Shown here: positions 2,309 through 29,398 of the stretch, piece by piece
Layout of the letters: every line of letters starts with the position of its first letter
How positions within the stretch are numbered: the stretch's first letter is position 1
DNA from: Candidatus Daviesbacteria bacterium
GTDB taxonomy: Bacteria > Patescibacteriota > Microgenomatia > Daviesbacterales > UBA10151
NCBI GenBank assembly: GCA_028687915.1
Contig: JAQTZF010000001.1
Span: 802,634-866,633, forward strand
Reading direction: 5' to 3'
Length of the DNA stretch: 64,000 bases
Made by a program: the position numbers and the translations under genes
The notes under the pieces: generated by a model
What the model saw: only the letters and a program-made list of their open reading frames with translations
Told to the model about the DNA's origin: nothing
Databases searched by the model: none

Positions 2309-2671
2309 ATGGATAATACTTTGGCTAACATCCCACCAGAAGTTATAAGCTATCTGGATAATCTTTTAAGAGAAGCAAATATTACCCCTGTTGATGAAAC
2401 AATGCGTGAACAATTATTACTCGAGCTATATGCCAGATTAGATAGCTTTATTACCACCACCATTGTTGAAAATATGGATCCACAAAATTTGGATGCATTT
2501 ATTAAATTAAATGAGGAAAATCACCCACGGGAAGAGATAGAAGCTTTTATCAAAGAAAAAATGCCGGATGCAGATCAGGTTTTTGCCAAAGCTTTTATAG
2601 ATTTCCGCGACCTCTATTTAGGAAATACAGGAGTCGAAGTGCCTCAAACTGAAAATCCATCAACTAATTAA
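2309..2671 (+). CDS. Small acidic hypothetical protein (120 aa), first gene of the operon
   Basis: ORF; its stop lies 3 nt before the next start. Confidence 0.5.
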   Translation: MDNTLANIPPEVISYLDNLLREANITPVDETMREQLLLELYARLDSFITTTIVENMDPQNLDAFIKLNEENHPREEIEAFIKEKMPDADQVFAKAFIDFRDLYLGNTGVEVPQTENPSTN

Positions 2672-2674
2672 CTT

Positions 2675-5600
2675 ATGTTAACATCTGCCGAAACCGGAAT
2701 AGATACATCTGCTGAGGCTGGAGCAAAACCAGAAATTACACAAGAAAAAGTTTTAAAAGATTTCAGATATGCAAAAGAAAAGTACAAAAGAGAAGTTGGA
2801 AATAAACCTAAAGCAGAATTAACCGCAGATGAAATATTTGATTTAAATGCTTTTAATGGTGCATTTGAAACAAATGAGCACCGCATTGGTGCAAATTTTG
2901 AAAAAAACAGATTTACTTACACAAACAAAATTACCAATCCTAATGGTGGACCTGATATTGAACAAGAAGAAGGTGTGCCCATAGAAGGAATGCTAAACTT
3001 CCTGGAAAAAAAGCTAAGTATATCAAAAAGTAAAGCAGAGAGGGACAAAATTGAAGAAGTATTAAAAACGTTAAAAAATCCCGATGTTTCAAAAACCTAT
3101 GAAGAGGCTCATGAGAACCAAATAATCGATATCCAGCCTGGTGAAACAGATGATCCTATTATGTTTGCCAGAAAAAGGCAGGAAGCTTTATTTGCTTCAA
3201 AAGACCACCGGGCAACGGGCAATATGCTTGAAAATTACAATGCAGGATTAGCTACCCTTAAAAGACGTAGAGAGTTGATAATTCCACCTAAAGTTGCAGC
3301 TACAGTGCCTGCAACAGGCACTGGATCCACCACTGCCCCAATTGCTGCACCACCAGTTACTACTGCAGGCCCAGAAGGAACCAGTATTATAGAAGCAGCT
3401 GAAGAATCTGAAGATGATTTAGCAGATACAGAAGAGGATACAGCAGCTGTAGAAGATATAAAACCAGCAGTAGCAGAAGGCACTGGAATTCCCGGGGACA
3501 CAATATTGCCTGAAACTCTAGAAACAGCTGAGGAGGATTCTGAAGAAGAAAATGCTCCTGTAACGTCAGAAGGTAATTTAGAGCCGGAGATATCAACAGA
3601 GCGAGGCACAAACACAACAGCTCAAACCCGAGGAAGATACGAATTTGGTGTTATCAGGGATGATGATGTAATTGATAAAAATGCCAGCTTACAAGCCAGA
3701 AAAGATTTCCACGAAAGAATTAGCAAGGGAAGATGGTTTGAATTCTGGAGATGGCCGGAAAAAATCGCCTTAAGGCTTAGTGAAGGTGGAATAGAAAATA
3801 TTCAGCAGGAAAAGCTTAGAAACGCCTGTATTGCAAATGGAGTTTCATTTTTAGATATAAAACAAATAAAAAGTGCTATAACTGAGGCAGACAGGATTCA
3901 ATCTAATGAACGACAAGAATCCCTCTTGGAAAGATTTGCAGCAGGAAGAATTGTTAAAAGAGAAGATGATAAAAAACCAATAATCGAAGAAAAAGTATTA
4001 TTGGCAGAAGATTCTCCTCTTAGGGCAGCTTTGTTAAGCGACATTATTAAGCCTGTGGTAGATGGCGAGATTACTGGTTCGCGCACTGAACAACAAAAGC
4101 AGATTCAGGAGAAATTAGCTGCAGTAATTAAAAAAAATCTCAATGATCCAAAAGTAAAAGAAATCTTTGGAGCAGAAGCCAGTGATTTTGGTTATGTTGC
4201 TGAATATTTTGCCACAGACCTTCTTGAAAAAAGCCTGGCAGTCAAAGAACAAATGGAGTTTCATAAAGAATCTCTGGAACAAATATCAGCTTATATAGAT
4301 ATCCATATTGGAATTGCCAGAGATCAAAGCAATACAGATACCAGAAACACTGTTGATAGGGCTGTAGCATGGGCTAGAAGCAGACAAAATGATCGAATGT
4401 TTACTAAGGGAGTACAGGAAGTAGTAGGGAATAGGGGATGGATTTTAAATCCTGCTGTAGTGGGTATAGCTACCAGCTTAGCAACCCATGGTTTATTAAG
4501 CAGTGTCGGTTTTGGAGGAAGAGTAGCTGGAATAGCAGCACCTATAGCTGGTGCTATGGGAGGTGCTGTTGTGGCTGGAGCCAGAAGGTATTTTGAAATC
4601 GGCGGTGACAGAAGAATGCAGGAAGCGGAACTTTCCATGGGAGAAGTACTTCCGGAAAAACGCCATGCCACAGACCGTATCGGAAAATGGATGGAACGAG
4701 CTATGGGTGGATACCGCAGAGAAGACTTGCTTCAATATAGATATGATTCTGTTAAGACAAGTGACCTTATTAATGGCAGCGGGGAAATTAATAATATATT
4801 TGACACAGATAGCACTAATCCAAAGAGAACGCTTAAGAGCGTTGACCAGTTGTTATCCCAACCTTTGGATATTCCAGCTGGAATTGATGATACTACCAAG
4901 GAAATAAGGGAATCTAATAGAAAAGCTGTTGCCGAAAGAATGGAAGAAATTCGTCTTAGAATTAACAGAGGTAAAAGACAAAAAGTTGATTTACTCACAT
5001 TCTCTGACAAAACTCAGGTTAACCAGGAGCTTAATGCTTTATATGATGCTGCAGATAAATTAGAACAGGCATTAACAGCTAGTGATGCAGATGTGGCAGC
5101 ATTAAAGTTTTTTGCTGACACCGCACTAAATGATGCCTTTGATAGAGATAAAAAACTAAAAGACAATGGTTTTAGAGGCTATAGAGCAAGACAAGCTGCT
5201 GGTGCAGCAGTTTTTGGAGGAACAGTAGGACTTGCAGGAGCACTAACCACAGGAGTCTTTTTACAACATGGAGCAGCAGAAATAGCCAGGCATAACCCAG
5301 GTATTTCTAAAGTACCTATTATTGGTGGGTTATTTCAACCAGGACAAACAGCGCTTGAAAAAACTGCACATAATATAGGTACAGTTTTAGGACATCCAGA
5401 AATAGGCACAGGACCAGCCAGTGTTGATACTTTCAAAGATATGTTTGATCACGGAGGCAGGGTAAATATTGGCAATACCACTCTTGAAGCAAACCCAGAC
5501 CACACTGTTACTTTTTTTGATCGAAACACAAACCAGCCACTTTCAAACATACCAAAAACATATTTGGAAGCTGATGGTAAATTAATTGTCCCTGGAAATA

Positions 5601-6079
5601 TTGGTGACTTACCTGGAGAAATGCACAGTTGGGCTCACAGTGAAACTTTTGAACATTCTATAAGACAACAAATTCAGGAAGCAATGGCAGTTAATGAAGT
5701 CACTAAAATTGATATTGGTGAACTTACAGTTGGTATCAAGGGTAATGAAGTACATATTTTAACAAGTGACCAAATAGATCCTATAACAGGGAAACTTATA
5801 CCAGGACAGAAACCTTTGATTGGAACAATTGACCAAAACTCTAACTTTCACTTTACCGGAGCTACTTCAGAAGAAATTAGTAAAGTTCAGGCAGAATTAG
5901 CAGCCCATGGTTTTAAAACCCAGGTTGAAGATATTCCTGGCAAATCTGAAATAAAAGGAGTCATAGATCATTTCAAGGAAAAAGGTATGGTTGAAAAGGC
6001 CAATAGGCTTTTTTGGCATGATAACAACACCACAATGCACTTAAATGCACAGGGAATTCTGGTGGGTGCAAGATGGTAA
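2675..6079 (+). CDS. Giant hypothetical membrane protein (1134 aa) with an acidic/Pro-rich linker and two Gly-zipper TM regions
   Basis: Long ORF; TM-like segments GWILNPAVVGIATSLATHGLL…AGIAAPIAGAMGGAVVAGA and AAGAAVFGGTVGLAGALTTGVFL. Confidence 0.6.
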   Translation: MLTSAETGIDTSAEAGAKPEITQEKVLKDFRYAKEKYKREVGNKPKAELTADEIFDLNAFNGAFETNEHRIGANFEKNRFTYTNKITNPNGGPDIEQEEGVPIEGMLNFLEKKLSISKSKAERDKIEEVLKTLKNPDVSKTYEEAHENQIIDIQPGETDDPIMFARKRQEALFASKDHRATGNMLENYNAGLATLKRRRELIIPPKVAATVPATGTGSTTAPIAAPPVTTAGPEGTSIIEAAEESEDDLADTEEDTAAVEDIKPAVAEGTGIPGDTILPETLETAEEDSEEENAPVTSEGNLEPEISTERGTNTTAQTRGRYEFGVIRDDDVIDKNASLQARKDFHERISKGRWFEFWRWPEKIALRLSEGGIENIQQEKLRNACIANGVSFLDIKQIKSAITEADRIQSNERQESLLERFAAGRIVKREDDKKPIIEEKVLLAEDSPLRAALLSDIIKPVVDGEITGSRTEQQKQIQEKLAAVIKKNLNDPKVKEIFGAEASDFGYVAEYFATDLLEKSLAVKEQMEFHKESLEQISAYIDIHIGIARDQSNTDTRNTVDRAVAWARSRQNDRMFTKGVQEVVGNRGWILNPAVVGIATSLATHGLLSSVGFGGRVAGIAAPIAGAMGGAVVAGARRYFEIGGDRRMQEAELSMGEVLPEKRHATDRIGKWMERAMGGYRREDLLQYRYDSVKTSDLINGSGEINNIFDTDSTNPKRTLKSVDQLLSQPLDIPAGIDDTTKEIRESNRKAVAERMEEIRLRINRGKRQKVDLLTFSDKTQVNQELNALYDAADKLEQALTASDADVAALKFFADTALNDAFDRDKKLKDNGFRGYRARQAAGAAVFGGTVGLAGALTTGVFLQHGAAEIARHNPGISKVPIIGGLFQPGQTALEKTAHNIGTVLGHPEIGTGPASVDTFKDMFDHGGRVNIGNTTLEANPDHTVTFFDRNTNQPLSNIPKTYLEADGKLIVPGNIGDLPGEMHSWAHSETFEHSIRQQIQEAMAVNEVTKIDIGELTVGIKGNEVHILTSDQIDPITGKLIPGQKPLIGTIDQNSNFHFTGATSEEISKVQAELAAHGFKTQVEDIPGKSEIKGVIDHFKEKGMVEKANRLFWHDNNTTMHLNAQGILVGARW

Positions 6080-9000
6080 GGAATTGCAGTTTTATCACCA
6101 CCTTTTACCCGGTGAAACTGTTGATTTGGATATGAGCAAGATGATTTCCCAAATGACTCCAGCAGGAGGGGTAAATTGGGATAACACCATTGATAGCCAA
6201 TATAGTCACCTTATGAATGACATCACAACCAACCCTGATGGAACCCACAATTACAAGAACTTTGAATTTTTAATTACCCCAAATGATGCTGCTGATAATG
6301 CCAGAGATATAATAAAAATTACCGTAGGGGCTGATGGACATGCACAAATCCCCAAAGGAGTAGATTTACACCAATTTTTTGATACCAAAAGTGGTGATGT
6401 GAAGCAATTAGCAAGGTTTATAGAAGTAGCTCATGTAGAAGCAGATGGGTCCAGAACAATTATTTCTACCTCAGTAGGGAAGGGAATTGATAATATTTTA
6501 GTAGAAGGTCCAGGTACTCATACTCTTAATGCTATACCCCCACTTGCTAAAGAATTAATCCCTCCATCATTTGAAGCTCCACCAATCATCCCAATCCCAT
6601 TCGCCCCAAGACATCCTTTAGAAGAAATTGGAGAGGAGGAGATAGGAGGAGGTTACTACCCTGAGGGAGTATTTCCGCGCGGAACAAGAATTGCAGACGT
6701 AATAAGAAGAGGAAGGGGAATCCGACGAGGACACTCGCCATATGAACTTTCAGAAAGAGACATAACCATTGATCATGAAGAAGGAATGGCTGCCTTAGCC
6801 GAGTTGAGACAGTCATTTGAAAATACTGATGGAGTTTATGTTGTTTTAGGTGGTGCTATAGGGGATGCTGTTATTAGTACCGCTTATATCAAAGGCATTC
6901 AACAAGCTCTAAACCAATCTGGAAAGAGTATACCTTTGACAATCATGGTAAGCCAGGATCAGGGAGATCTTTACGATGCTTGGGGACAGGGAAATATCAA
7001 AATAGTTAAAGTAGCTAGAAATAGCGGTTTGGCTGAAGCAACATCTGCGATTACCGCTTCTAGCTTAAAGAATCCTCTTATTTTTGACTTTGAACATGCA
7101 AGAGCTGCAAATCCTACTATTGAAATAGAGGAAGTAAATAATCAAAAAATCACAACCGTCGCAAATCTCTTAATCCCGGCAGTACACCTTTATAATAATG
7201 GCTCAGATAGTGAAAAAAGATATTCAAAATTCATTGAAGAATTATTGTCCCTTCCTGAAAACTCAGTTGATCCGCAAATTGCAAAACCAACAATTGAGCT
7301 GCCAAGTAATAAAGATCAACTCTATGAAAACCTTGCAAATCGTTGCGGAATTGATACTAATAATCCAAATCAAATTTCAATTATTGTAGAAGGATCACGT
7401 CCGGGAAAACGCTATGGTATGCAAAATTGGGCAACTGTCATTACTGAAATACAAAAACAATATCCCAACTATCAGTTCAATGTCCTCTTTAACAAACAAG
7501 ATAGACGCGTCGGTTATACAGAAGATGATATTAGAACAACATTAACTAACGCTGGTGTTATAAATAGCTGTCATTTAGTAGATGGCACTTTAATGGAGCT
7601 AGCAGTTCTTTTGGAAAAACAAAAGTTAACACTTACAAATGATAGTGGGCTTGCACACATCGCAGGTGCACTTAAAAATGGCCCTAGTGTAGTAATGCTA
7701 TTTTTACCAAAAGATTCGTCAGTAAACATGTGGGCTTCAAGCAAAAAGCACATACCTATAGCTTTATCAAAAGAGGAAGAACAAAATCTCAGTAATGTTG
7801 ATATTAATGATGAGAATGAAGACCGTAAATTAATGAATAAAATCCCTCCTGAAAGGATAATTCAAAAAGCTCTTGAAGTATTAAACTCACAACCTACAGC
7901 AATCTCAACACCAGCACCACGAAGAAGTACTGGAACAGGAGCTCCTCCGACCATAGATAATACATTTAGTCCTGGTACACCTGCTTATAATGCCATGGAA
8001 AATCATTCAGAAGCAGAAAGATTATTACCAGTTTGGCGAAACCTTTTACAAGTAAAAACTACAGGAGATCCGACTCAATTAGAAGAAACTATAAAAACAA
8101 TTGAAGCAAAGTGGCCAGATTTAGCAGCTTCTACTACACCACAAACGACACCAGCATCTACACAGCCAGTTGTAACAACACCTCCTATCGCGATAACTGA
8201 TGAGGAATTGGCAGCAACAACTCCAGAAAATCCTAATATCAACCCCTTCCGTCGCACACAATTAGCAGCCTGGAATTCTTTCGAAAACCATAGGGAAGCC
8301 GAACGATGGTTGCCAGTATTGAGAAACATTTTACAAGAAGGCGCTGAAAGGGATCCAGATCAATTAGAAAAAGATATAAAAACAATTGAAGCAAAATGGC
8401 CTGATTTGGCAATAACAATTCTGCCAGCCCCTACCGTAACCGCATCAGGAGGTCCAGCCCAGTCAAAAATGTCAATTTGGGGAAGAGAGATTCCTAGAAC
8501 TTTCCAACCTGACAGCTCAGGTTCTTTACCTCGCAGCATGGGAGGCAACCGTTATGATCTGGATATGAATGGAAATTTATACATCGACGAAAGACCAGCC
8601 TCTGAAAAAGAGGTCGAAGACTTCAATAAACTTCACCCTCATCCCAGAGGACTACAAGCCCGCGTTCCAATACTAGCACCACCAACAGCTGAAGAGTTAA
8701 ATGCTCCCGCACCAACCAAACCCGGAGGAACTTTACTTGTAAATCTACCAAGACCTGCCCCAGCTCCAACAACACCTCCAATAGCAATAACTGATGAGGA
8801 ATTGACTGCAGCAACGCCGCCAGAGCAACCACCTGTCGCAACCTCACCTTTACCTCAACCCGGTCCAAGACAAAGAGTTCTTCTGACAAATATGCCAAGA
8901 CCTACTGTTATTCCACCAACTCCAGCACCAACAACTGAACCCAATGAATCAGTTACTTCAGCTAATAATGAAGAAACTCTTAATATCAGTGAAGAACAAT

Positions 9001-9689
9001 CAAGGGTAATTAATAGTATCCAAAGGATTGCCCCTCAACTAAATCAAGAGAAAATACTAGAATTTATTGCAAGAGCCCACACTATAAACCCAAGCAGTAT
9101 TCTTAAAACCACCAGTTTATTAAGTGAAGAGTTAGCCATAGAAGAATTTATCCGCGAGTGGGAGACTGAATCAACTGCAGGTAAAACGAACGATCCGCTT
9201 GAAGTATGGCTAAACAATAAGCTTACTGCAACTGAACCAACACCTGTTGAAAACACAAGTACACCAGCTGCTTTTGAATTTACAGAGGAACAAAAAGCTC
9301 AGTTTGAAGATCAAAAAGAAAAAATTGCTGCAACTTTAGAAACTAATGGAATAATGGATGATAATAATTTAGGGGAGCTTTACCAAATTTATAATTTAAT
9401 TACAGATCAATGGTCTTTGATTGATATAGAACCTGCTGAAGATTTAAAAGAGCTTGCTACTTCCATTTCAGATAGAATCAAAGGAACTGATGATAAATTT
9501 AAGTTAGCTGGTCTTTTGGCTAACCTCTTTTCCAATCCTGATGTTCAAACCAAATATCCTGACTTAAACGATTACTTTAATAATAGATCCATTGATACTG
9601 CGGATCAAAGAGCTATTGTACGTAGACAGTTCTTTGAATTTATGTACTCCTTAAAAGCTGTTAATGATCTTGTCTCACCTCAGCCTTAA
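6045..9689 (+). CDS. Giant repeat-rich protein (1214 aa) with an embedded GT9 (heptosyltransferase-like) glycosyltransferase domain (about nt 6807-7725); start uncertain, may be a frameshifted continuation of the previous ORF
   Basis: GT9 motifs VVLGGAIGDAVIST, EGSRPGKRYGMQNW and LTNDSGLAHIAGALKNGPSVVMLF; Pro/Thr-rich C-terminal repeats. Confidence 0.6.
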   Translation: MHREFWWVQDGKELQFYHHLLPGETVDLDMSKMISQMTPAGGVNWDNTIDSQYSHLMNDITTNPDGTHNYKNFEFLITPNDAADNARDIIKITVGADGHAQIPKGVDLHQFFDTKSGDVKQLARFIEVAHVEADGSRTIISTSVGKGIDNILVEGPGTHTLNAIPPLAKELIPPSFEAPPIIPIPFAPRHPLEEIGEEEIGGGYYPEGVFPRGTRIADVIRRGRGIRRGHSPYELSERDITIDHEEGMAALAELRQSFENTDGVYVVLGGAIGDAVISTAYIKGIQQALNQSGKSIPLTIMVSQDQGDLYDAWGQGNIKIVKVARNSGLAEATSAITASSLKNPLIFDFEHARAANPTIEIEEVNNQKITTVANLLIPAVHLYNNGSDSEKRYSKFIEELLSLPENSVDPQIAKPTIELPSNKDQLYENLANRCGIDTNNPNQISIIVEGSRPGKRYGMQNWATVITEIQKQYPNYQFNVLFNKQDRRVGYTEDDIRTTLTNAGVINSCHLVDGTLMELAVLLEKQKLTLTNDSGLAHIAGALKNGPSVVMLFLPKDSSVNMWASSKKHIPIALSKEEEQNLSNVDINDENEDRKLMNKIPPERIIQKALEVLNSQPTAISTPAPRRSTGTGAPPTIDNTFSPGTPAYNAMENHSEAERLLPVWRNLLQVKTTGDPTQLEETIKTIEAKWPDLAASTTPQTTPASTQPVVTTPPIAITDEELAATTPENPNINPFRRTQLAAWNSFENHREAERWLPVLRNILQEGAERDPDQLEKDIKTIEAKWPDLAITILPAPTVTASGGPAQSKMSIWGREIPRTFQPDSSGSLPRSMGGNRYDLDMNGNLYIDERPASEKEVEDFNKLHPHPRGLQARVPILAPPTAEELNAPAPTKPGGTLLVNLPRPAPAPTTPPIAITDEELTAATPPEQPPVATSPLPQPGPRQRVLLTNMPRPTVIPPTPAPTTEPNESVTSANNEETLNISEEQSRVINSIQRIAPQLNQEKILEFIARAHTINPSSILKTTSLLSEELAIEEFIREWETESTAGKTNDPLEVWLNNKLTATEPTPVENTSTPAAFEFTEEQKAQFEDQKEKIAATLETNGIMDDNNLGELYQIYNLITDQWSLIDIEPAEDLKELATSISDRIKGTDDKFKLAGLLANLFSNPDVQTKYPDLNDYFNNRSIDTADQRAIVRRQFFEFMYSLKAVNDLVSPQP

Positions 9690-9694
9690 TCAAC

Positions 9695-11668
9695 ATGGAA
9701 GAAAAAGGTGCTGAACCGGCTATGATATCCAGAAGGCAGTTTTTTAATCTGGTAAAAGATAAAGCCCCTGCTGTTATTACTGCTCCTTTTGTATTGGACA
9801 ATATTTTAACAAACCAAACAACAAACCCTCCAGAAATAAACTCTAAGGAAAGTGAAGATTTTTTAGAAAAATCTACCTCACAATTGTCTAACAGCATATT
9901 GTCTTTGAGCCCTGATAAAAAACAATCCAGTTCAACAACAACTCTACTTGCATCAGCAGCTTTTCTAAGTTCTAAGAAAGATAGCCAACAAGAAAAACTT
10001 ACACCAAGTGACCCTTTTTTTGGGAACACACTGGAATTACTTCTACCGGAAATTGAAGATCCTTTTTTTGGAGGCGGTCTGGAACTACTTTTACCAGACT
10101 TGGAAGAGACAAAAGGCAAAAAAGAGGGAGTGTTAAATAAATTGTGGACCAGAAGACAAACTATTGGCGCATTAGGAGCTGGACTAATAACAGCAACTGC
10201 CTTATCCAAACTCACAATTCCTACAGTATCAGAATATATGAAGAAAGTGTTTAATACGGTTGAGGCAGAAGCAGTTGAATTTGATCCAAATAAGATCTTC
10301 CCTCCAGTCCCAACCCCTATCCCAGGTAAAAAAGAATCAAAACCTATCCAAAAACCCAATCCAGAAAAACCTAAACCTTTACCAACACCAGAAAAACCAC
10401 CCAAAGAAATTGTTGGTAATAAAAATTTAGCAGAATTTTTTCTTGGTGACCTTTTAGAAAAATTTAAAACTAGAAGACAGGAGAGAGTAAAAAATCCTGA
10501 CGCAGCCGAACGAATTAATAAAGAATTACTTGGATCAGATAGTATTTTCACGGTTTATATGGGAATAGATGAAACTCGTGACAGACCAAAAGTCTTTAGT
10601 TCTGTTGGATGGGGCAGATCAGACATTGTTCTTTTAACCGCTTTTAATATTCATACTTTTCAAACAAAAGTTGTTTCTATACCAAGGGATTTATTTGCAC
10701 CAGAACTCGCAAAATACTTTCCTAAAGATCCTAAAAATCCCAATGCAGCTCCACCTAAAGTTAATTCAATGACAACCGTTGAGTATGCAAAATCAATTGG
10801 AAATATTAAAGAAAGCGTAAATGAGTATGAATTAATTAAAAAAATCATTGAATCAGCAACCGGATGCCCGATTGATATGATGGTAAAAACTAATATCGAT
10901 TTTATGCAGGGATCATGGGATAGAAAAATACCAGGAATTTTTGACAGACTCACACCAAATGGAATTGATGTATTAATACCAGAAAGTTTTACAGATAAAG
11001 AATACCCAACACCTGGGGAAGGAGATGAAACTATCTTTTTTGAAAAAGGATGGCAAACACTTAGTACAGGAAAATACCCAAAAAGAGCTGGTAATCCAGG
11101 AAAAGGAGGTTATACAAATCCTGATACAGTTTCCAGAAACATTACTGCATATGCTAGATCAAGAAAAGGGGACTCTGATTTTGCCAGGTCAGACAGACAA
11201 AGACAGATACTTTCTGCTTCACTTAAGGCAATTATGCCTGACGTTCTAAAAGATTTAACTGCTGGGTCTTCAAAGTCATTGGATACAATTGTCTCTGCCC
11301 TTGAAGGACAAAAACAGGCTGCAAATCTCTTTTTTGACGTTGATATTATCGAGATTGTTAAAACACTAAACGCAAATATTTTAAAACTAAGACAAACTGC
11401 AAACGGCACAGCTGCACTAGGTGTGTTGATTGCAAATACTGCAGGTGTTGTAAGTAAAATCTCGAAAGATGACAAAAACTCGTTTGTCTCATATGGGCCC
11501 ACTTTTACTGATGGACTAGATAAAGTAGACGAAAAAGATCCGAATTTTTGGTTTGCTGAATCAAAGCCTGCTGGTTCTTCAACTAGCTTACCGCCCACTC
11601 AACTAGGTAATTATTTATCTTATTGGGCACCCTTAAGAAATAAAGTTATGAGTATAATGAAAAACTGA
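9695..11668 (+). CDS. LCP (LytR-CpsA-Psr) family glycopolymer phosphotransferase with Tat-like N-terminal motif
   Basis: LCP signature GIDETRDRPKVFSSVGWGRSDIVLLTAFN…VVSIPRDL; SRRQFF and TRRQTIGALGAGL motifs. Confidence 0.7.
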   Translation: MEEKGAEPAMISRRQFFNLVKDKAPAVITAPFVLDNILTNQTTNPPEINSKESEDFLEKSTSQLSNSILSLSPDKKQSSSTTTLLASAAFLSSKKDSQQEKLTPSDPFFGNTLELLLPEIEDPFFGGGLELLLPDLEETKGKKEGVLNKLWTRRQTIGALGAGLITATALSKLTIPTVSEYMKKVFNTVEAEAVEFDPNKIFPPVPTPIPGKKESKPIQKPNPEKPKPLPTPEKPPKEIVGNKNLAEFFLGDLLEKFKTRRQERVKNPDAAERINKELLGSDSIFTVYMGIDETRDRPKVFSSVGWGRSDIVLLTAFNIHTFQTKVVSIPRDLFAPELAKYFPKDPKNPNAAPPKVNSMTTVEYAKSIGNIKESVNEYELIKKIIESATGCPIDMMVKTNIDFMQGSWDRKIPGIFDRLTPNGIDVLIPESFTDKEYPTPGEGDETIFFEKGWQTLSTGKYPKRAGNPGKGGYTNPDTVSRNITAYARSRKGDSDFARSDRQRQILSASLKAIMPDVLKDLTAGSSKSLDTIVSALEGQKQAANLFFDVDIIEIVKTLNANILKLRQTANGTAALGVLIANTAGVVSKISKDDKNSFVSYGPTFTDGLDKVDEKDPNFWFAESKPAGSSTSLPPTQLGNYLSYWAPLRNKVMSIMKN

Positions 11669-11682
11669 AGTATAATCTCCTC

Positions 11683-13686
11683 ATGGATTTAAGTACTAAA
11701 TTAGTTCACACATCTGGCATTGGACCATCGCTCCAGGCTAAATTAGATAAATTAAACCTTACAACAGTTGAAGATTTAGTTACTCATTATCCTTTTAGAT
11801 ATGAAGATTTTGCTAAAATCTCCAAAATTGCTGAAGCCAGGGCAGGGGAGATTGTCACATTTTCTGGTGATGTTTTGTCTATTAAAAATACTTATACAAA
11901 ATCACATAAAATTTTAACCAAAGCTATATTAAATGATGGTTCCGGATCTGTAGAAATAATTTGGTTTAACAACCGCTGGATTATCAAAAATATTAAAGTA
12001 GGGGATAAGATCCAAACTTCCGGGAAATTAGACTTTTTTGCTGGAAAATTAGGCTTAATTGCTCCTGAGTGGGAAAAAGTAGACATTAATCAAGCATTAC
12101 ACACTGGAAGATTAGTACCAGTTTATCCTGAAACATATGGTTTAACCTCAAAATGGTTAAGAGCAAAAATCCATCAATTCTTACCACAAATTACTCCTAC
12201 TATTGTGGACCCTATTCCTGTTGAAGCCACCAAAGATTTCCTACCTTTAGCCAAAGCATTAGAAAAAATACATTTTCCAGATACTTATTCTGAGATTTTA
12301 CAAGCTAAAAAAAGACTTTCCTTTGATGAACTTTTCTATATCCAGCTTTCTACTTTAAAGAAGCGGGAAGACTGGCAAAATAAACAGGTTACCAAAGCAT
12401 TTAAAATTGATAAGGAAAAATTACAGGAATTTATAGATAAATTACCTTTTAAACTAACAAAAGCACAAGATAAAGTAATTCAGGAAGTATTAAAGGATGT
12501 GAATAAAACAAGCCCTGCTAATAGATTAATCCAGGGAGAAGTAGGTTCAGGAAAAACAGTAGTAGCAGCAGTAATTATCTATTTAGCTTATCTTAATGGG
12601 CTAAAGTCGTTACTTATGGCACCAACAGAAATTCTGGCATTTCAGCATAATGCTACTTTAACAAAATTACTAGAACCTTTTGGTATTAGCGTTGGCCTTT
12701 ACACTGGTAGCAAAAAGTTTACTAATATACCAGATGTTATTGTAGGAACCCATGCTCTCTTATCAGAAAAGTTAGAGTTAAATGATATTGGTTTAATTGT
12801 GGTAGATGAACAACAAAGATTTGGTGTTGCCCAAAGAAGTTTACTTCGGGCAAGAGCAAAAAGCCCACATTTTATTACTATGACAGCCACACCAATCCCC
12901 CGAACTGTTGCCTTAACAATTTATGGAGATTTAGATTTATCTGTTATCGATGAAATGCCTGTGGGCAGGCTTGAAGTTAAAACTCACTATGTTCCTGAGA
13001 TAAAAAGAGAAGATTCATATAAGTTTATGGAAAAAGTTGTTCAAGAAGGGCAACAAATTTATATTATCACTCCATTAATTGATGAATCTGAGACATTAGT
13101 TTCTGCCAAAGCTGCTAAAGCTGAATTTGAAAAACTTCAAACTAAAATCTTCCCAAATCTTAAGTTAGGATTATTGCATGGTAAATTAAAGCCAAAAGAA
13201 AAAGAAGAAGTAATTAATGCTTTTAAGAACCATAAAATTGATATTTTAGTATCCACTTCTGTGGTGGAAGTGGGAATGGATATTCCCAACGCAACCATCA
13301 TGGTTATAGAAGGAGCAGAAAGATTTGGCTTATCCCAATTACACCAGTTAAGGGGAAGGGTGGGCAGGGGAAACCTGCAATCATATTGCTTCTTATTTGC
13401 TGAGCAGGAAATTCCTCAAGTAATAAGCAGGTTAAAGAATCTTGAACATATTCATGATGGTTTGAAGTTAGCAGAACTTGATCTGCAAATTAGAGGCTCA
13501 GGAGAAATCTTTGGAACCAGACAAAGTGGTGATTGGGACCTTAAAATTGCTTCATTATCTAATTTAGAATTAATTGAACAAGCCAGAAATGAAGCTAAAA
13601 AAATACTACAGGACGATTTAACCCTTGACAAACATCAACCACTTCTGGGAAAATTGTTAAACTTAGAAAATATAATGCCCGATTAA
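11683..13686 (+). CDS. recG: ATP-dependent DNA helicase RecG
   Basis: Walker A GEVGSGKTVVA, DEQQRFGV motif, 667 aa; wedge/OB N-terminus. Confidence 0.85.
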   Translation: MDLSTKLVHTSGIGPSLQAKLDKLNLTTVEDLVTHYPFRYEDFAKISKIAEARAGEIVTFSGDVLSIKNTYTKSHKILTKAILNDGSGSVEIIWFNNRWIIKNIKVGDKIQTSGKLDFFAGKLGLIAPEWEKVDINQALHTGRLVPVYPETYGLTSKWLRAKIHQFLPQITPTIVDPIPVEATKDFLPLAKALEKIHFPDTYSEILQAKKRLSFDELFYIQLSTLKKREDWQNKQVTKAFKIDKEKLQEFIDKLPFKLTKAQDKVIQEVLKDVNKTSPANRLIQGEVGSGKTVVAAVIIYLAYLNGLKSLLMAPTEILAFQHNATLTKLLEPFGISVGLYTGSKKFTNIPDVIVGTHALLSEKLELNDIGLIVVDEQQRFGVAQRSLLRARAKSPHFITMTATPIPRTVALTIYGDLDLSVIDEMPVGRLEVKTHYVPEIKREDSYKFMEKVVQEGQQIYIITPLIDESETLVSAKAAKAEFEKLQTKIFPNLKLGLLHGKLKPKEKEEVINAFKNHKIDILVSTSVVEVGMDIPNATIMVIEGAERFGLSQLHQLRGRVGRGNLQSYCFLFAEQEIPQVISRLKNLEHIHDGLKLAELDLQIRGSGEIFGTRQSGDWDLKIASLSNLELIEQARNEAKKILQDDLTLDKHQPLLGKLLNLENIMPD

Positions 13687-13694
13687 GGAAAAAT

Positions 13695-13898
13695 ATGGCT
13701 GCAGAACCAAAAAGAAGACATAGTAAAGCAAGAAAAAGAACCAGAAGAGCCTCCATTAAGTTGGAGCCTAATCAATTGATTAAATGCACAAGTTGTGGAG
13801 AATTAAAGTTATCTCATATCGTTTGTGCTGCTTGTGGTATGTACAACGATAAACAGGTTATTACAAAGACAAAGGCCAAGATAACCCGAGCAGAGTGA
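13695..13898 (+). CDS. rpmF: 50S ribosomal protein L32
   Basis: Strong similarity to B. subtilis L32 (…RRHSKARKRTRR…CTSCGE…CAACG zinc ribbon); AAGGA SD upstream. Confidence 0.85.
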   Translation: MAAEPKRRHSKARKRTRRASIKLEPNQLIKCTSCGELKLSHIVCAACGMYNDKQVITKTKAKITRAE

Positions 13899-14269
13899 AG
13901 ACTTCTAACGACCCTAGACATCTAAAACGAGAGGCTATAGTCAAGGAATTATTTACATGGGCGTTTACAGATACTTATAAACTGCAAACAAAAGAGGCGG
14001 CTTTGATAGTTGATAATTTAACTAAAATTGACAAGGAGATTGAAGGTGGAGCACCAAGTTGGCCTCTAAACCAGATTAATCGCATTGATTTAGCTATCTT
14101 GCGTTTAGCAGTTTTTGAGTTAATAATGGTTAAAGATACCCCTTTTAAAGTGGTAGTAGATGAGGCCGTAGAAATGGCCAAAAAATATGGGGCAGATACC
14201 AGTTCTTCGTTTATTAATGGAGTTTTGGGAAACATAATAACTGCACATAAATTAAATATTAAAAAATAA
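13895..14269 (+). CDS. nusB: Transcription antitermination factor NusB
   Basis: NusB-like helical protein (ILRLAVFELI…SSSFINGVLG); ATGA overlap with rpmF. Confidence 0.75.
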   Translation: MKTSNDPRHLKREAIVKELFTWAFTDTYKLQTKEAALIVDNLTKIDKEIEGGAPSWPLNQINRIDLAILRLAVFELIMVKDTPFKVVVDEAVEMAKKYGADTSSSFINGVLGNIITAHKLNIKK

Positions 14270-14271
14270 AA

Positions 14272-14508
14272 ATGTTAGACCAAAAGAAAATTACAGAAGC
14301 AATAGCAGATAATCTGGGTTTACCACCTGCGGATATTGACGCGGAATCACATCTCCAGGATGATTTAGGATTAAATGCAGTGGAAATAGCAGATCTTTTG
14401 GGAGATTTAGCAGATAAATTCCAAATTGCTTTTCATCCATCTGAACCTGCTCAGGTAAAAACAGTAGGGGATTTAATTGAACTTGTTGAAGATAAGTTAC
14501 TAGAGTAA
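14272..14508 (+). CDS. Acyl carrier protein-like (78 aa) lacking the phosphopantetheine-attachment Ser (DSL replaced by LNAV)
   Basis: Acidic four-helix ACP-like sequence DDLGLNAVEIADLL; conserved rpmF…acpP…rnc synteny. Confidence 0.55.
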   Translation: MLDQKKITEAIADNLGLPPADIDAESHLQDDLGLNAVEIADLLGDLADKFQIAFHPSEPAQVKTVGDLIELVEDKLLE

Positions 14509-14514
14509 TTCTCC

Positions 14515-15207
14515 ATGGACAGCGAACTTTTAAATATCCTAACAAAAAACGGGATTAAACCTAAAGACATTGCCTTTTATAAAACAGCTTTTACTCATAG
14601 GTCATATCTTAATGAATCTAAAAGTGCCATGGAATCAAATGAAAGAATGGAATTTTTAGGTGATTCTGTATTGTCTTTTATTACCTCCTCATACCTTTTT
14701 AATAAAAGACTTAAAGATACTGAGGGTGATTTAACAAACCTCAGGGCTTTTATTGTTAAAACAGATTCCCTTGCTAAAGCCTCCAGTAAACTCGGACTGG
14801 GTGAGCTATTAAATCTTTCCAAAGGAGAAGAGATATCTGGTGGCAGAAACAACCCTCAACTTTTAGCTAATACCTTTGAAGCTCTTTTAGGAGCAGTCTA
14901 TCTTGATTTAGGCATTGAAGAAGCCACCAAATTTGTGGAGAGCACTCTATTACCAATATTTAAAGAAGAGATGGAAAAAGGGGCTCCTAAGGACTCTAAA
15001 AGCCTATTACAGGAACAAATACAAGCAAGAATGCAGACTTCACCTAAATATAAAATATTGGGCACTACAGGCCCAGATCATGCTAAGAAATTTACTGTAG
15101 GGGTTTTTATCAATAATACTTTATCAGGACAGGGAACAGGATCCAATAAACAACAGGCAGAAGAAGCTGCAGCCGAACAGGCACTAATTAGCCTTGAGAA
15201 GCATTAA
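14515..15207 (+). CDS. rnc: Ribonuclease III
   Basis: Signature ERMEFLGDSVL and C-terminal dsRBD. Confidence 0.85.
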   Translation: MDSELLNILTKNGIKPKDIAFYKTAFTHRSYLNESKSAMESNERMEFLGDSVLSFITSSYLFNKRLKDTEGDLTNLRAFIVKTDSLAKASSKLGLGELLNLSKGEEISGGRNNPQLLANTFEALLGAVYLDLGIEEATKFVESTLLPIFKEEMEKGAPKDSKSLLQEQIQARMQTSPKYKILGTTGPDHAKKFTVGVFINNTLSGQGTGSNKQQAEEAAAEQALISLEKH

Positions 15208-17506: not shown

Positions 17507-18190
17507 TTACTGGAAAAGATCAACCTTACCCAATGGAGTGGATGAAGCACTTGATTCTGCCACAGACTGAATTTTATATTTAGACAAACTTTGAATTAAT
17601 GTATTCTCCTTTTCAGTAATCTCCGCAATTGGCTGATCCATTGTTAAAACAGTTGAAGGAGCTGCCTGATAATAAACACTTAAAGGAATATCTGCTACAA
17701 GTGATCCCTCTCCACTTTGAAACTTTAATGCGATTGATTCAACCTTAAACAACCGCGCAGCATCCTGCAGGCTATTTAAAAAATTCCTGGTGGCTGGCAG
17801 GGAACCTGCTACGGAAATAGCAAAGGAAAAATTTTCCTGGTTAGCAGTTTTGGCACTTGATGAATAAGAAGTACTTTTTAAAGTTAAATTTGATTTAGCA
17901 ACTAATTCCTGTAAAACTGCCATGGCCTGAGGGACATCACGTCCGGTTGGCAAAACAGTTAAGGCTGTAACTAAATCCTGTTCTAGTTTAGTTTGATCAA
18001 GGCTTTCTAACTCTGATGATTTTTTATTTAATAATTCAATTCTATTTAAAACTAAATCAGCTTTTTCTTTATCTTTAAAGAAATCCATCATTTGCGGAAT
18101 AATAACAAATATTATTATGGCTAAACAAATAAAACCTACTACAGAGGGGATAATATATATTCGATATTTAAGATAAAATTCTTTTACCAT
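17507..18190 (-). CDS. pilO: Type IV pilus assembly protein PilO-like
   Basis: N-terminal TM, coiled coil, location after pilM-pilN. Confidence 0.5.
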   Translation of the reverse strand: MVKEFYLKYRIYIIPSVVGFICLAIIIFVIIPQMMDFFKDKEKADLVLNRIELLNKKSSELESLDQTKLEQDLVTALTVLPTGRDVPQAMAVLQELVAKSNLTLKSTSYSSSAKTANQENFSFAISVAGSLPATRNFLNSLQDAARLFKVESIALKFQSGEGSLVADIPLSVYYQAAPSTVLTMDQPIAEITEKENTLIQSLSKYKIQSVAESSASSTPLGKVDLFQ

Positions 18191-18191
18191 T

Positions 18192-18743
18192 TTATTTTAC
18201 TGCAGCAATCCTCAACGAAAAACGATAGGTTGATTCTTTCCCCAAAGATATACCGGCTAAATCAACTTTAGATACCAAATTCATATTTGTTTCTTTATTG
18301 GAAAGGCCTAAAAAAAGCTTATCAATACCTGCAAGCGACTTACTGTTAAAGGAAGCCGTAATAGATCCATTCTTATCAACAGACACATCTGTTAAGGTTA
18401 CCTCCGGAGGTGTTAAATATACGATCAAATTAAACATCGTTTTGACCTTTTCATCAGTTCCAAGTTTTGATGAAATTGCATCTAATCTATTTTTCAGAGC
18501 ATATACTGCAACCTCTTTATTTCTAAATGATAAAACTTTATCTTCTGCAACCTTAACCTCATCCATCATCTTGCTACTTTCACGATTTTGGTTGATTCGA
18601 AGAAGCAATACACCCACGGTTAAAATAATCACCAAAACCAATACACCAATACTTAATTTATTAACCAAACTAAGCTTGCTGCTTTGAATTCTTTCTAATA
18701 ATACTGTTTGTGGTAATAAGTTAATAGAAATCTTATTCATCAC
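18192..18743 (-). CDS. pilN: Type IV pilus assembly protein PilN-like
   Basis: INLLP motif, single TM; 4-nt overlap with pilM. Confidence 0.55.
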   Translation of the reverse strand: MMNKISINLLPQTVLLERIQSSKLSLVNKLSIGVLVLVIILTVGVLLLRINQNRESSKMMDEVKVAEDKVLSFRNKEVAVYALKNRLDAISSKLGTDEKVKTMFNLIVYLTPPEVTLTDVSVDKNGSITASFNSKSLAGIDKLFLGLSNKETNMNLVSKVDLAGISLGKESTYRFSLRIAAVK

Positions 18744-19768
18744 TCTTCCCTTAGGGCTAAGCCTACAGCAATGGTATACTGGGCAGAATCAACAAGTTTT
18801 GAAGCAAGGGCTTTATCTTTACCAATAAAATACCAGGGATCAGCCTCCTGAATTTCCAATCCTAAGGTATTAGCAAAATATATTACCAAACCAGGTAATT
18901 TTGCTCCTCCTCCGGATAAAACAATTCTCTTAATCGGATTTTGAACATTTTTTGATTGGAATGCCTGAATCACTCTTTGCGCTTCAGATAAAATCATATC
19001 AATTAAAGGCTTCAGTACCTCATAAATCTTACCACCCAACTGATCTTCCAGTAATCCATAAACCTTTTTATATTCTTCTGCCTGAACTGGCTCAAAGTTT
19101 AAATATTGGGAAATTGCTCTGGTTAAAGCCATTCCACCTGTTCCAATAGATCTGGTCAATAAAATTAAACCTTTTGAAACAACAGCAAAGTCTGTGGAGT
19201 GAGATCCTAGCTGAACAATTAAAGTGGTTGGGGCATAAGGATTATTGCCTACCAAAGCCCTTGTGGCAGCAATTAATTCTGTTTCCAGGGCTTGAGGCTT
19301 TAATTTAACATAATCTAATACCTGTAAATATTTATTTACAGTATTTTTGGGAGATGCTACCACAAACACCGAGGTATTATTTTGAGGTTTAGACCGATTA
19401 ATAACCTGCCAATACAGGTTAACCTGATCAGCCGGCAGAGGAACAAATTCCTCAGCAGAGTAGTGAATAGAAGAAGATAATTCTTCATCAGATAAAAAGG
19501 GCAGGTCATTAATAACTCTGGTAAAAATTTTTGATTCAGGAAGGGCTAAAACTACTGGTAAATCTGGTGCTTTAATAGAGGTTAATAAGGTTTTAATTGC
19601 CTTAGCTTCTCCCTCTAAATCAAATGGATTTTCAGAACTTATTCCAGGCTGAGGCGCGGCAATAGACCCAAAAGACACTAAAGAAGCAGGCTTTGTTTTG
19701 TGGGACAAAACAACCGCTTTTATCGAAAAACTTCCAATATCTAATCCAATAGAATAATCTTGAGCCAT
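18740..19768 (-). CDS. pilM: Type IV pilus assembly ATPase-fold protein PilM
   Basis: Actin-like fold motifs (IGLDIGSFSIKAVV…; SGGGAKLPGL). Confidence 0.75.
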   Translation of the reverse strand: MAQDYSIGLDIGSFSIKAVVLSHKTKPASLVSFGSIAAPQPGISSENPFDLEGEAKAIKTLLTSIKAPDLPVVLALPESKIFTRVINDLPFLSDEELSSSIHYSAEEFVPLPADQVNLYWQVINRSKPQNNTSVFVVASPKNTVNKYLQVLDYVKLKPQALETELIAATRALVGNNPYAPTTLIVQLGSHSTDFAVVSKGLILLTRSIGTGGMALTRAISQYLNFEPVQAEEYKKVYGLLEDQLGGKIYEVLKPLIDMILSEAQRVIQAFQSKNVQNPIKRIVLSGGGAKLPGLVIYFANTLGLEIQEADPWYFIGKDKALASKLVDSAQYTIAVGLALREE

Positions 19769-19791
19769 AGGCAGTAATATTATTGTATCAT

Positions 19792-21558: not shown

Positions 21559-22121
21559 ATATTCCTTAAGTTTGTTACTATTATTGAACTTCTGGATTTA
21601 TCAGAAACATTACTTCCGGGCAAAACAGTTATTTGAGTTTTAACTTTTTCTGCTGAAGTTGCAGTAACAATGTTATCGTTTTTATCAAGATATATAAACT
21701 CTACCGACTGCAAAATACTACTTAAAACTCTGTTTTGACTACTTCTGTCGCTTAAAGCATCAGGAAAAATATACTCCCAAAGCAAATTAGTTTTTGCATT
21801 ATCTTTTGTAAAAACTACATAATCATACGTATTAGCAATTACACCCAAAGCATTAAAGGCAGGAACTTTTAACACTAAAGTAGTACTGTTTGAAATATAC
21901 GTTGGAGAAACATCTGGATATCCACTAACCACTGACGATGCCTGACGAGTAAAGTTTTCAATTTCATGAATTGCATCATTAGTATTTAAACCGGATGTTA
22001 CCAAAGAACTCTGACTGTTATATATACCTGTATTATTAACTAAAATACCAGCCAGAACTGTACCAACTATTAAGAATATAGCTGTTACTATTAAAATCTC
22101 CACCAATGTAAATCCTTTCAT
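21555..22121 (-). CDS. Type IV pilin-like protein (MKGFTLVEILIV)
   Basis: Class III signal peptide G|FTLVE. Confidence 0.6.
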   Translation of the reverse strand: MKGFTLVEILIVTAIFLIVGTVLAGILVNNTGIYNSQSSLVTSGLNTNDAIHEIENFTRQASSVVSGYPDVSPTYISNSTTLVLKVPAFNALGVIANTYDYVVFTKDNAKTNLLWEYIFPDALSDRSSQNRVLSSILQSVEFIYLDKNDNIVTATSAEKVKTQITVLPGSNVSDKSRSSIIVTNLRNI

Positions 22122-23466: not shown

Positions 23467-23468
23467 GT

Positions 23469-26245: not shown

Positions 26246-26280
26246 ATATTAAACGTATCAACTTTTAGCAAAATTAGCAA

Positions 26281-27260: not shown

Positions 27261-27287
27261 ATATTTACAATATCATATTTAATGAGA

Positions 27288-28931: not shown

Positions 28932-28939
28932 TATCTTCT

Positions 28940-29395: not shown

Positions 29396-29398
29396 GCT

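Follow-up and report, generated by a model that had tools for sequence, protein, structure and literature searches.

An apparently frameshifted giant gene with a GT9 domain in a Candidatus Daviesbacteria genome belongs to a Patescibacteria family paired with DUF5663 proteins and linked at some loci to type IV secretion genes

Patescibacteria, which live attached to other microbes, account for a large part of bacterial diversity, and to our knowledge the host lineage of the locus described here has neither an outer membrane nor lipopolysaccharide (LPS). The fold of glycosyltransferase family 9 (GT9) is known to us almost only from LPS core synthesis and autotransporter heptosylation; the enzymes of the latter process, TibC/AAH (BAHT), glycosylate Ser/Thr residues of proteins and are the only precedent we know of for a GT9-fold enzyme acting on proteins. 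Among secretion components, tandem paralogues that carry large hydrophilic extensions are known for extended VirB6 in Rickettsiales, and F-plasmid TraG has a C-terminal part that is active in the recipient cell. Patescibacteria's type IV secretion system (T4SS) is essential in the one genetically tested species, and no substrate of this system has been named (PMC11665869, PMC12102498); its role has been called completely unknown, and effector delivery has only been speculated upon (PMC11665869). This study describes the locus of a giant gene with a GT9 domain in a stretch of 64,000 nucleotides (the window) of a Candidatus Daviesbacteria (Patescibacteria/candidate phyla radiation) metagenome-assembled genome (MAG), which consists of one contig of 1,096,538 bp. 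The gene, apparently interrupted by one extra base in this copy, belongs to a family whose members are paired with a small DUF5663 protein, carry different C-terminal enzymes and, at some loci, adjoin T4SS genes.

The window contained four consecutive plus-strand open reading frames (ORFs), g1 (2309-2671, 120 aa), g2 (2675-6079, 1134 aa), g3 (6045-9689, 1214 aa, starting with the ATG at 6045 and annotated as "glycosyltransferase family 9 protein") and g4 (9695-11668, 657 aa, LytR-CpsA-Psr (LCP) family), with spacings of 3 nt, a 35-nt overlap and 5 nt. Positions, strand and spacing were exactly those given in an earlier inspection of the letters of this DNA (the sequence-only reading). The accession numbers MDD2823284-86 on the 1,096,538-bp contig correspond to g2, g3 and g4, and MDD2823283, for which that contig is one of two, corresponds to g1; the contig carries the locus tags PHQ59_04375 and PHQ59_04380. 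The sequence-only reading had taken g2 and g3 for two giant proteins. They are read here as a single gene of ~2,337 codons, interrupted within the 35-nt overlap by a surplus A at position 6071, a +1 frameshift in the plus-strand context GGT GCA (A) GAT GGT AAG. The Ala codon ends at 6070 and the Asp codon begins at 6072. The N-terminal 1,132 codons of the giant lie at 2675-6070 (+), annotated as a separate 1134-aa protein ending at 6079, and the C-terminal 1,205 codons at 6072-9689 (+), annotated from the ATG at 6045 as the 1214-aa protein. The g2 frame runs out as ...GILVGARW-stop, the g3 frame reads ...WVQDGKELQFYHH, and DGKELQ follows after 6071. The public annotation as two proteins (MDD2823284 and MDD2823285) conceals the frameshift.

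Comparison with homologues carried this assignment. Twelve homologues of g3 from a large protein collection were 1,576-2,033 aa long, and their N-terminal halves aligned to g2 and the next part to g3. In the protein P0002, residues 77-1034 matched g2 81-1132 and residues 1035-1654 matched g3 10-623 at 65% identity. Residue ~1132 of g2 abutted residue 10 of g3 in-frame in all nine homologues with both sides of the junction aligned (P0002, P0007, P0010-P0012 and those of loci L007-L010 and L012; two loci encode the same proteins). These homologues are continuous in one frame, reading ...HLNEQGILVGADGKELQFYHH... and ...WHDNxTPMHLNEQGILVGADGKELQFYHH..., and the full-length product of the repaired window gene would span the junction as ...GILVGADGKELQ....

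The copy in the window may be inactive; it would be a freshly inactivated gene, a gene expressed as two pieces or a gene mis-sequenced by one base. A recent pseudogene or split gene with impaired function, at a locus that does little or nothing, is a tentative reading held at somewhat below even odds. The extra base lies outside a homopolymer run (GCAAGAT) and is thus not at a typical sequencing-error site, the break falls inside the best-conserved block of the family (repaired residues 1101-1350), and no Shine-Dalgarno-like sequence precedes the ATG at 6045. NCBI and Logan assemblies each list both exact ORF products, weak evidence against a one-off artefact of assembly if, as assumed, the two source records are independent. 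The halves are otherwise intact (1,134 and 1,214 codons free of additional stops in DNA of 37-39% GC) and keep all conserved residues, so that any inactivation must be very recent, and the start at 6045 overlaps the upstream frame, which could still allow expression of the second half by termination-reinitiation. A sequencing or consensus error, with the gene intact in the organism, is rather unlikely. It is consistent with the one-base difference from an otherwise perfect 2,337-codon frame, with a source MAG that may derive from long reads, and with the presence of the frameshift in the window alone among the nine junction-aligned homologues; the AA dinucleotide context is not error-prone, and the same ORF products in two collections speak against it as well. 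Programmed +1 ribosomal frameshifting at GCA-AGA, which would yield the exact consensus ...VGA-DGKE..., was rejected as very improbable. The site offers no slippery codon in the P site, since tRNA-Ala is unable to re-pair on CAA, and AGA should be common among the codons of a 35% GC genome. Nor is the site conserved, as a frameshift is required in none of the homologues.

The core of the giant (repaired residues 751-1400) was turned into a profile and compared with 1.84 billion cluster representatives. There were 695 matches at E <= 1e-3, of which 410 reached 1e-10 and 117 reached 1e-30; almost all were 1,200-2,900 aa long, and the family members with a named source were all Patescibacteria (Daviesbacteria, "Patescibacteria group"). 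Alignment of the junction domain gave one locus in species-representative genomes (L006) and three short loci in metagenomes. L006 (CAYRCR010000008.1) is labelled as an "uncultured Gammaproteobacteria bacterium" MAG, probably a binning or labelling error because all other named relatives are Patescibacteria. Conservation spanned repaired residues 1 to ~1750, and the last ~590 residues of g3 were lineage-specific.

The N-terminal ~1,300 residues consist of cytoplasmic-looking helical domains, three Gly/Ala-zipper segments and a junction domain. The g2 part had no Pfam match, these ~1,300 residues belong to no Pfam family, and the sequence profile of the whole family gave zero matches in the PDB, as did the PADLOC defence models. 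AlphaFold2 (AF2) modelling of g2 from a 36-sequence alignment gave a mean predicted local distance difference test (pLDDT) score of 70 with four confident domains, and that of repaired residues 751-1400 from 9 sequences gave a mean of 55. A Foldseek search of the latter model against the PDB found nothing significant, and the best structural match in BFVD, a "minor tail protein" (E 6e-4, template modelling score (TM-score) 0.06), is not meaningful. The family adds ~1,300 conserved residues for which Pfam and the PDB hold no model.

The features that the sequence-only reading had described in g2 were all present. An acidic Thr/Pro/Glu-rich linker, predicted to be disordered (g2 210-318; 3302-3628, +; pLDDT ~33), lies in a region with a net charge of -25 (residues 200-330) and showed low occupancy and conservation in the family alignment. 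A Gly/Ala-rich helical hairpin (g2 590-635; 4442-4579, +), predicted to hold the first two transmembrane (TM) segments, was moderately hydrophobic, with Kyte-Doolittle 19-residue means of 1.4-1.7, and the hairpin pattern was found at the matching relative position in 12 of 12 homologues. The third Gly/Ala-rich hydrophobic segment (g2 844-863; 5204-5263, +), predicted as TM3 from a hydropathy of 1.63 and a conserved position, is preceded by a Lys/Arg-rich flank (DKKLKDNGFRGYRAR). By the positive-inside rule, this flank would place the C-terminal 1,470 residues outside the cell, and these weak signals suggest an N-in, C-out topology. The junction domain (WHDN...GADGKELQ...FLITPNDAAD...QLARFIEVAH; 6005-6578, +), which is cut by the frameshift, is the most conserved domain of the family (67% mean column identity in a six-sequence alignment) and had low AF2 confidence.

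The C-terminal part of the giant begins after a Pro-rich boundary motif, PPIIPIPFAPRHPLE (g3 179-193; 6579-6623, +), recognised from the family consensus and matched as a regular expression in 42 of 156 proteins. Past this motif, family members diverge into different enzyme modules. The module in the window is a divergent GT9 domain, of predicted GT-B fold (g3 217-618, ~1340-1740 repaired; 6693-7898, +) with its catalytic signature residues intact. The GT9 assignment of the sequence-only reading, like that of LCP in g4, survives the profile search it had named as decisive, since both Pfam scores exceed the gathering scores: g3 matched Glyco_transf_9 (PF01075) over residues 393-557 with 34.1 bits against 22 (E 2.3e-8), and g4 matched LytR_cpsA_psr with 44.1 bits against 24.6. 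The motifs that it had named, GDAVIST (as part of GGAIGDAVIST), SRPGKRYG and NDSGLAHIAGAL, were likewise found in g3. Seven homologues also matched PF01075, and GAIGD, the K of PGKRY and NDxGLxHxA were invariant across the 8 family GT9 domains. The roles of these signature residues we take to be those of their counterparts in HepI. The family GT9 profile spans 401 positions, which would accommodate a complete GT-B domain. Its matches in the PDB ranged from E 2.5e-4 to 0.05 and included WaaF (1psw, 2.5e-4), a Veillonella GT9 protein (3tov, 6.4e-4) and HepI, and the D-S-G-L-x-H block aligned with the equivalent block of all three.

With LPS heptosyltransferases (WaaC/WaaF/WaaQ) the giant thus has in common the PF01075 match, G-D, the Lys in PGKRY and N-D-S/T-G-L-x-H-x-A, but its GT9 domain is embedded in a 2,337-aa protein and scores far under the equivalog cut-offs. 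The NCBIfam heptosyltransferase scores were 33.3 against 134.6 bits (II), 27.9 against 185.3 (I) and 20.2 against 170.2 (III), and with 20-33 bits against equivalog cut-offs of 134-569 the g3 domain is not an orthologue of any LPS heptosyltransferase. No SIS/GmhA or PfkB/HldE-type (ADP-heptose) gene and no polyprenyl-glycan gene was found among the 45 window ORFs scanned with Pfam, a scan that leaves out five ORFs of >=150 aa at 56-60 kb. As for BAHT, stand-alone GT9+TPR genes beside some giants hint at protein substrates, but the giant loci are without an autotransporter substrate, and the GT9 profile reached no TibC-type structure in the PDB at E <= 1, returning only WaaF, 3tov and HepI entries. 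The GT9 fold is used here in organisms without LPS as a module of a far larger protein.

Among ~150 best representatives of the family, the GT9 profile found GT9 in 29, and a GT-A-like domain was present in 65; the two never occurred together. The GT-A-like domain has an invariant DxD and weak sub-threshold matches to Glycos_transf_2, Glyco_tranf_2_3, GT21 and CHGN. A Pfam scan of 25 members without GT9 showed PP2C, protein kinase, ATP-grasp, Metallophos, FkbM methyltransferase, Kdo/WaaP kinase and C39-like peptidase domains, each once, and PP2C was additionally found in two GT9 members. P0002 and P0007 are each ~65% identical to the window before PPIIPIPFAPRHPLE and afterwards carry GT9 and a GT-A-like domain, respectively, and close relatives that differ only past this motif show the module-exchange pattern of polymorphic effector systems. 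Two DUF5663+giant cassettes stand in tandem at L010 (543-11007), the first giant (1,578 aa) with a GT9-like C-terminus and the second (P0010, 1,576 aa) with a Pro-rich tail and no glycosyltransferase. Beyond the GT9 domain of the window gene lies a lineage-specific C-terminal tail (7902-9686, +) of Pro/Thr linkers, helical repeats and a helical end region. It holds two pairs of repeats where the sequence-only reading had noted long Pro/Thr-rich repeats, two ~48-aa helical repeats (...EAER(L/W)LPV(W/L)RN(L/I)L...IEAKWPDLA) and two TPPIAITDEEL linkers. It had no Pfam match, and its counterpart was almost absent in homologues (occupancy <0.1 beyond repaired residue 2000).

Polymorphic toxins (Rhs, CdiA, LXG, MAFB) resemble the giants in a long conserved N-terminal region, a boundary motif and a variable C-terminal module, as well as in tandem cassettes, a small partner gene and secretion-system linkage. 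In contrast, the modules of the giants are mostly glycosyltransferases and not nucleases, deaminases or pore formers, the linkage is to a monoderm-type T4SS and not to type 5, 6 or 7 systems, and no sequence domains are common to both. No recurrent small partner or immunity gene was found downstream of the giant, where LCP, PrgI, GT-TPR, a 574-aa kinase-like protein and small ORFs vary by locus.

The gene context was compared at 13 loci including the window, a small sample partly related by descent. The conserved unit, overlooked in the sequence-only reading, is an M50-like membrane protein, a DUF5663 protein and the giant, and the recurrent wider context, equally overlooked, is a type IV secretion cluster. 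The product of g1, correctly described as a small acidic protein (net charge -15), matched DUF5663 (PF18908) with 27.2 bits against a gathering score of 23.7, and thirteen further giant neighbours matched a DUF5663 profile built from 12 of them. A DUF5663 gene stood directly upstream of the giant (beside it in L008) in 14 of 14 cases with sequence, including both L010 cassettes. The profile had no relative in the PDB, and the literature search found no publication mentioning DUF5663 or a Patescibacteria GT9 giant. The DUF5663 protein is an obligate partner of the giant and a candidate chaperone or adaptor.

The second partner is a divergently transcribed polytopic membrane protein of 226 aa (1553-2233, -), a candidate M50/site-2-protease-like protein with ~6-7 strongly hydrophobic segments. 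Homologues of 190-235 aa, also divergently transcribed, adjoin the giant in 8 loci. H54-E55-x-x-H58 and N145-x7-D153-x-E-G were invariant in 6 homologues; the classical second motif of M50 is NxxPxxxLDG, from which N...DxEG departs. The Peptidase_M50 matches were sub-threshold (4 of 6 members, best E 0.09, ~10 bits against 27.2, profile positions 3-174), and the profile of the membrane protein gave zero matches in the PDB. It is a candidate intramembrane zinc metalloprotease. The 75-nt intergenic region between this gene and g1 contained back-to-back promoter-like hexamer pairs (2240-2290, both strands), TTGACA-17-AATACT on the plus strand and TTGTCA-17-TATACT on the minus strand; these are consensus matches only, and their count does not exceed the shuffled expectation.

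PrgI and VirB4 genes follow the giant in five of the 13 loci (L001, L003, L004, L011 and L015). The order at L001 is DUF5663, giant, PrgI, TraC-like, VirB4 ... Amidase_2 on a single strand, the giant at L003 and L004 stands between a four-gene T4SS pilin array and PrgI, TraC-like and VirB4, and L011 and L015 have PrgI and VirB4 at a distance of 1-3 kb downstream. Three of these five loci also have a gene annotated as a cell-wall hydrolase. The giant upstream of prgI (VirB3-like) and virB4 occupies the VirB6-like slot of monoderm T4SS clusters. The Patescibacteria T4SS survey makes no mention, in its text and some of its supplements, of giants, DUF5663 or GT9 (PMC12102498).

Two further gene types were seen at the T4SS-linked loci. 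Genes for PF05635 "23S rRNA intervening sequence protein" were found at L003 (4159-4563 and 5976-6398), L004 (16443-16853) and L015 (16340-16747), directly upstream of prgI in two of the T4SS/giant loci. In three loci, a 400-450-aa Trans_reg_C protein (OmpR-type winged helix; L003 4610-5941, L004 43-1395, L015 4808-6016) is encoded ahead of the pilin array or of the giant unit; it may be a dedicated regulator.

Taken as a whole, the favoured reading is a T4SS-coupled, DUF5663-paired giant that would insert into membranes and carry a glycosyltransferase to or into the host cell, to which a probability of roughly 45% is assigned. Its identity parts are very probable, and its delivery mechanism is doubtful. 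The DUF5663 protein, as chaperone or adaptor, would hold or target the giant and keep it secretion-competent, and the giant would insert through its Gly-zipper helices. The C-terminal nucleotide-sugar-dependent enzyme would then be presented or delivered either at the secretion channel or at, or into, the host cell and glycosylate a target; the M50-like protease may process the giant within its helix-breaking glycine-rich segments, and LCP would be an optional envelope accessory and no fixed partner of GT9. The C-terminal enzymes of the family need ATP, nucleotide sugars or S-adenosylmethionine and so must work in a cytoplasm, and should the predicted N-in, C-out topology hold, it is a cytoplasm other than that of the producer. 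A small acidic partner encoded upstream, moderate hydrophobicity (1.4-1.7) and linkage to the T4SS together make T4SS-coupled delivery the best-supported model. Moderate hydrophobicity has been linked, in a class of T4SS membrane effectors, to escape from signal recognition particle (SRP) targeting and to direct secretion (PMC12981334). T4SS TM effectors with chaperones (VirE2-VirE1 and the IcmSW-dependent Legionella effectors) have moderately hydrophobic helices, a small acidic partner encoded directly upstream and T4SS proximity in common with the giant (PMC12981334), but the characterised ones are all from diderm pathogens of eukaryotes, and the giant is far larger. The ~700 giants, with their VirB6-like slot, small partner and swappable modules, are concrete candidates for tests of T4SS function.

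Several observations weigh against the favoured reading. VirB4 and PrgI are absent throughout the 64-kb window, T4SS genes are absent from loci L002, L010, L013 and L014, and the source contig was not among the best 120 of >7,600 matches to a related VirB4. Export of the giant is suggested by genomic linkage to T4SS genes in those five loci, and the sample of 13 loci is small and in part of common descent, with the window, L010 and L013 syntenic. The topology is drawn from hydropathy and from the charge bias of weak segments in which AF2 confidence is <50. No immunity-like gene follows the giant, and the gene is broken in the window genome. The mostly glycosyltransferase modules, with LCP, stand-alone GT-TPR and weakly matching polysaccharide deacetylase genes nearby, fit cell-autonomous envelope glycosylation equally well. 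The frameshift, the lack of T4SS genes in view and the small, partly related locus sample lower the value of the window locus.

A bolder form of the favoured reading, in which the giants are T4SS substrates or the host-contact element of Patescibacteria, is unlikely on present signals. The giant, held by its small acidic chaperone-like partner, would thread the T4SS and insert its glycine-zipper helices in the host membrane, the M50-like protease would control its release, and the swappable nucleotide-dependent enzyme, usually a glycosyltransferase and in some cases a kinase, phosphatase or ATP-grasp, would be placed in the host cell. If true, this would be the first effector family of any episymbiotic ultra-small bacterium and the first GT9 enzyme acting as an inter-bacterial effector.

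The first rival to the favoured reading, a revised form of the idea in the sequence-only reading, is that the giant is a cell-autonomous enzyme of envelope or pilus glycosylation. Its GT9 or GT-A-like module, sometimes with the help of stand-alone GT-TPR proteins, would build a glycan on a lipid carrier or a protein, possibly on its own Pro/Thr-rich regions or on T4SS pilins, and LCP would move this glycan onto the wall or onto a surface protein. This is given about the same low chance as the bolder form above. The product of g4 has one predicted TM segment (157-175), a Pro/Lys-rich linker and an LCP domain at 308-459 (PF03816), in common with LCP phosphotransferases; with its single hydrophobic segment ahead of the LCP domain, it has a membrane-anchor layout and a presumed matching orientation. 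It scored below the NCBIfam TIGR00350 cut-off (32 against 62.3 bits), and its 300-residue N-terminal region and 200-residue C-terminal extension are without known domains. Related LCP genes were found near giants in 4 of the 13 loci (the window, L005, L013 and L015), in three distinct contexts. The positional orthologue of g4 at L013 was 23% identical over 262 residues, with a common YWxPLR C-terminal tail, and the LCP gene lies 0.6 kb downstream of the giant and before prgI-virB4 at L015 and 8 kb downstream at L005. An interim view that LCP is never conserved was dropped after L013 and L015. With a few LCP genes per ~1,000-gene genome, one would be expected within 10 kb in ~5% of loci, so that by this rough estimate the observed frequency exceeds chance.

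About two thirds of the family representatives carry a glycosyltransferase module, which also suits cell-autonomous glycosylation, as do the pilin arrays adjoining the giant at L003 and L004. Stand-alone GT9+TPR genes (L004 9993-11780, L005 5592-7301) or a GT2+TPR gene (L014 15811-17688), all without membrane segments, come immediately after or near the giant, an arrangement reminiscent of TPR-guided protein glycosyltransferases. Glycosylation of the envelope or of proteins is a real theme around these genes. A gene near the L014 giant has a faint Polysacc_deac_1 match. On the other side, LCP is absent from the 9 other giant loci, including the syntenic L010, and it adjoins a giant with a GT-A-like module at L013, so it is a recurrent but facultative neighbour and not tied to GT9 in the way that the sequence-only reading had proposed. 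The conserved quartet of g1 to g4 suggested there does not hold either, as g2 and g3 are one gene and LCP is missing from L010 and from 4 of the 5 T4SS-linked loci. The predicted topology would place the enzyme outside the producer, without a donor sugar, and the scanned window ORFs offered no genes for ADP-heptose or for a polyprenyl-linked glycan. Nor does cell-autonomous glycosylation account for the other modules (kinase, PP2C, ATP-grasp, methyltransferase and peptidase), for DUF5663 as an obligate partner or for the 1,300 conserved non-enzymatic residues.

It is improbable that the giant is a structural component of the T4SS, an "extended VirB6" that would be the VirB6/PrgH analogue missing from Microgenomatia and would form part of the membrane channel, with an accessory C-terminal domain. 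Its position upstream of prgI and virB4 in the five loci resembles the virB3/virB4-adjacent slot of the extended VirB6 proteins (Rickettsiales RvhB6, F-plasmid TraG), although this is not seen in the window. Those proteins are likewise large membrane proteins, with hydrophilic extensions, tandem paralogues and a C-terminal part with a possible role in the target cell. The larger unannotated neighbours that were checked in the T4SS loci had no more than 2 strongly hydrophobic segments each, and no polytopic VirB6 candidate was seen among them. VirB6 homologues are scarce in Microgenomatia (PMC12102498). Unlike extended VirB6, the giant has no VirB6/TrbL homology and no Pfam, PDB-sequence or fold similarity to T4SS components, and its three weakly hydrophobic segments compare with >=5 in VirB6, TrbL and PrgH. 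Swappable enzymatic C-termini and tandem paralogues with different modules would be unusual for a core channel, and the giant is often encoded away from virB4. The favoured reading, cell-autonomous glycosylation and extended VirB6 shade into one another.

Polyvalent proteins are alike in their giant size, unite unrelated enzymes in one multi-domain protein and are presumed to move via a conjugation-type apparatus, and glycosyltransferases are nowhere mentioned in the main text of their survey (PMC5512222). The weak BFVD matches of the giant included a "large polyvalent protein associated domain" protein, at a TM-score of ~0.06 that is not meaningful. The giant differs in being chromosomal and syntenic in the window, L010 and L013, and Pfam found no MuF, ArdC or zincin MPTase domains. 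A tblastn search with g2 against 72,556 plasmids and 50,697 phages gave zero matches, and the mobile-element, tape-measure and polyvalent-protein readings were rejected on this ground. The parts with known relatives are thus GT9, LCP, DUF5663, the M50-like protease and the monoderm T4SS, and the giant family stands outside LPS heptosyltransferases, BAHT, VirB6 and polyvalent proteins, and outside classical polymorphic toxins for want of an immunity gene.

The gene order around the giant is partly kept between loci. At L013 it runs from an aminoacyl-tRNA synthetase gene (tRNA-synt_1b) through the membrane protein, DUF5663 and giant(s) to recG, nusB, rnc, trmD and a type IV pilus cluster, and the L010 contig, which ends at rnc, keeps this order from the membrane protein onwards. 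The order synthetase ... recG ... rnc ... trmD ... pilO kept in L013, and recG-rnc in L010, places the giant at a fixed chromosomal site in this lineage. In the window, recG, nusB and rnc lie at 11683-15207 (+). The sequence-only reading had described g1 to g4 as a co-transcribed four-gene operon; the tight spacing agrees with this, but it does not delimit a four-gene unit, since recG starts 15 nt after g4. No terminator-like site was found between g4 and recG, and beyond recG the genes nusB and rnc continue in the same direction, again with no convincing terminator.

Next in the window, at 17507-35442 (-), comes a large cluster of type IV pilus genes, with PilO- and PilM-like genes, a prepilin peptidase, PilC, at least 8 ORFs bearing prepilin N-methylation motifs and two ATPases of the T2SSE family, one of 350 aa and one of 567 aa that includes an MshEN domain. 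L013 shows the start of such a cluster (PilO-, PilM-like) after the same housekeeping genes before the locus ends. Within the cluster, a 519-aa ORF (24686-26245, -) combines a prepilin N-methylation motif with two strongly matching domains of the F5/8 type C kind (discoidin/NedA-like galactose-binding; E 1e-42); it resembles a pilin with a sugar-binding tip and possibly serves in host adhesion.

Elsewhere in the window, a peptidoglycan precursor block at 38231-45392 comprised two Mur ligases, an Asp/Glu racemase and a D-Ala-D-Ala ligase, together with a 255-aa sugar-phosphate nucleotidyltransferase, the only nucleotide-sugar enzyme among the scanned ORFs, which is generic and not of the heptose pathway. 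A 383-aa ORF at 59786-60937 (-) has a LytR_C domain (E 2.8e-6). The region 48762-53875 (-) contained a tyrosine recombinase (307 aa) next to an 852-aa ORF without a Pfam match and two ORFs (231 and 209 aa) with cohesin domains, which are unusual for a ~1-Mb genome.

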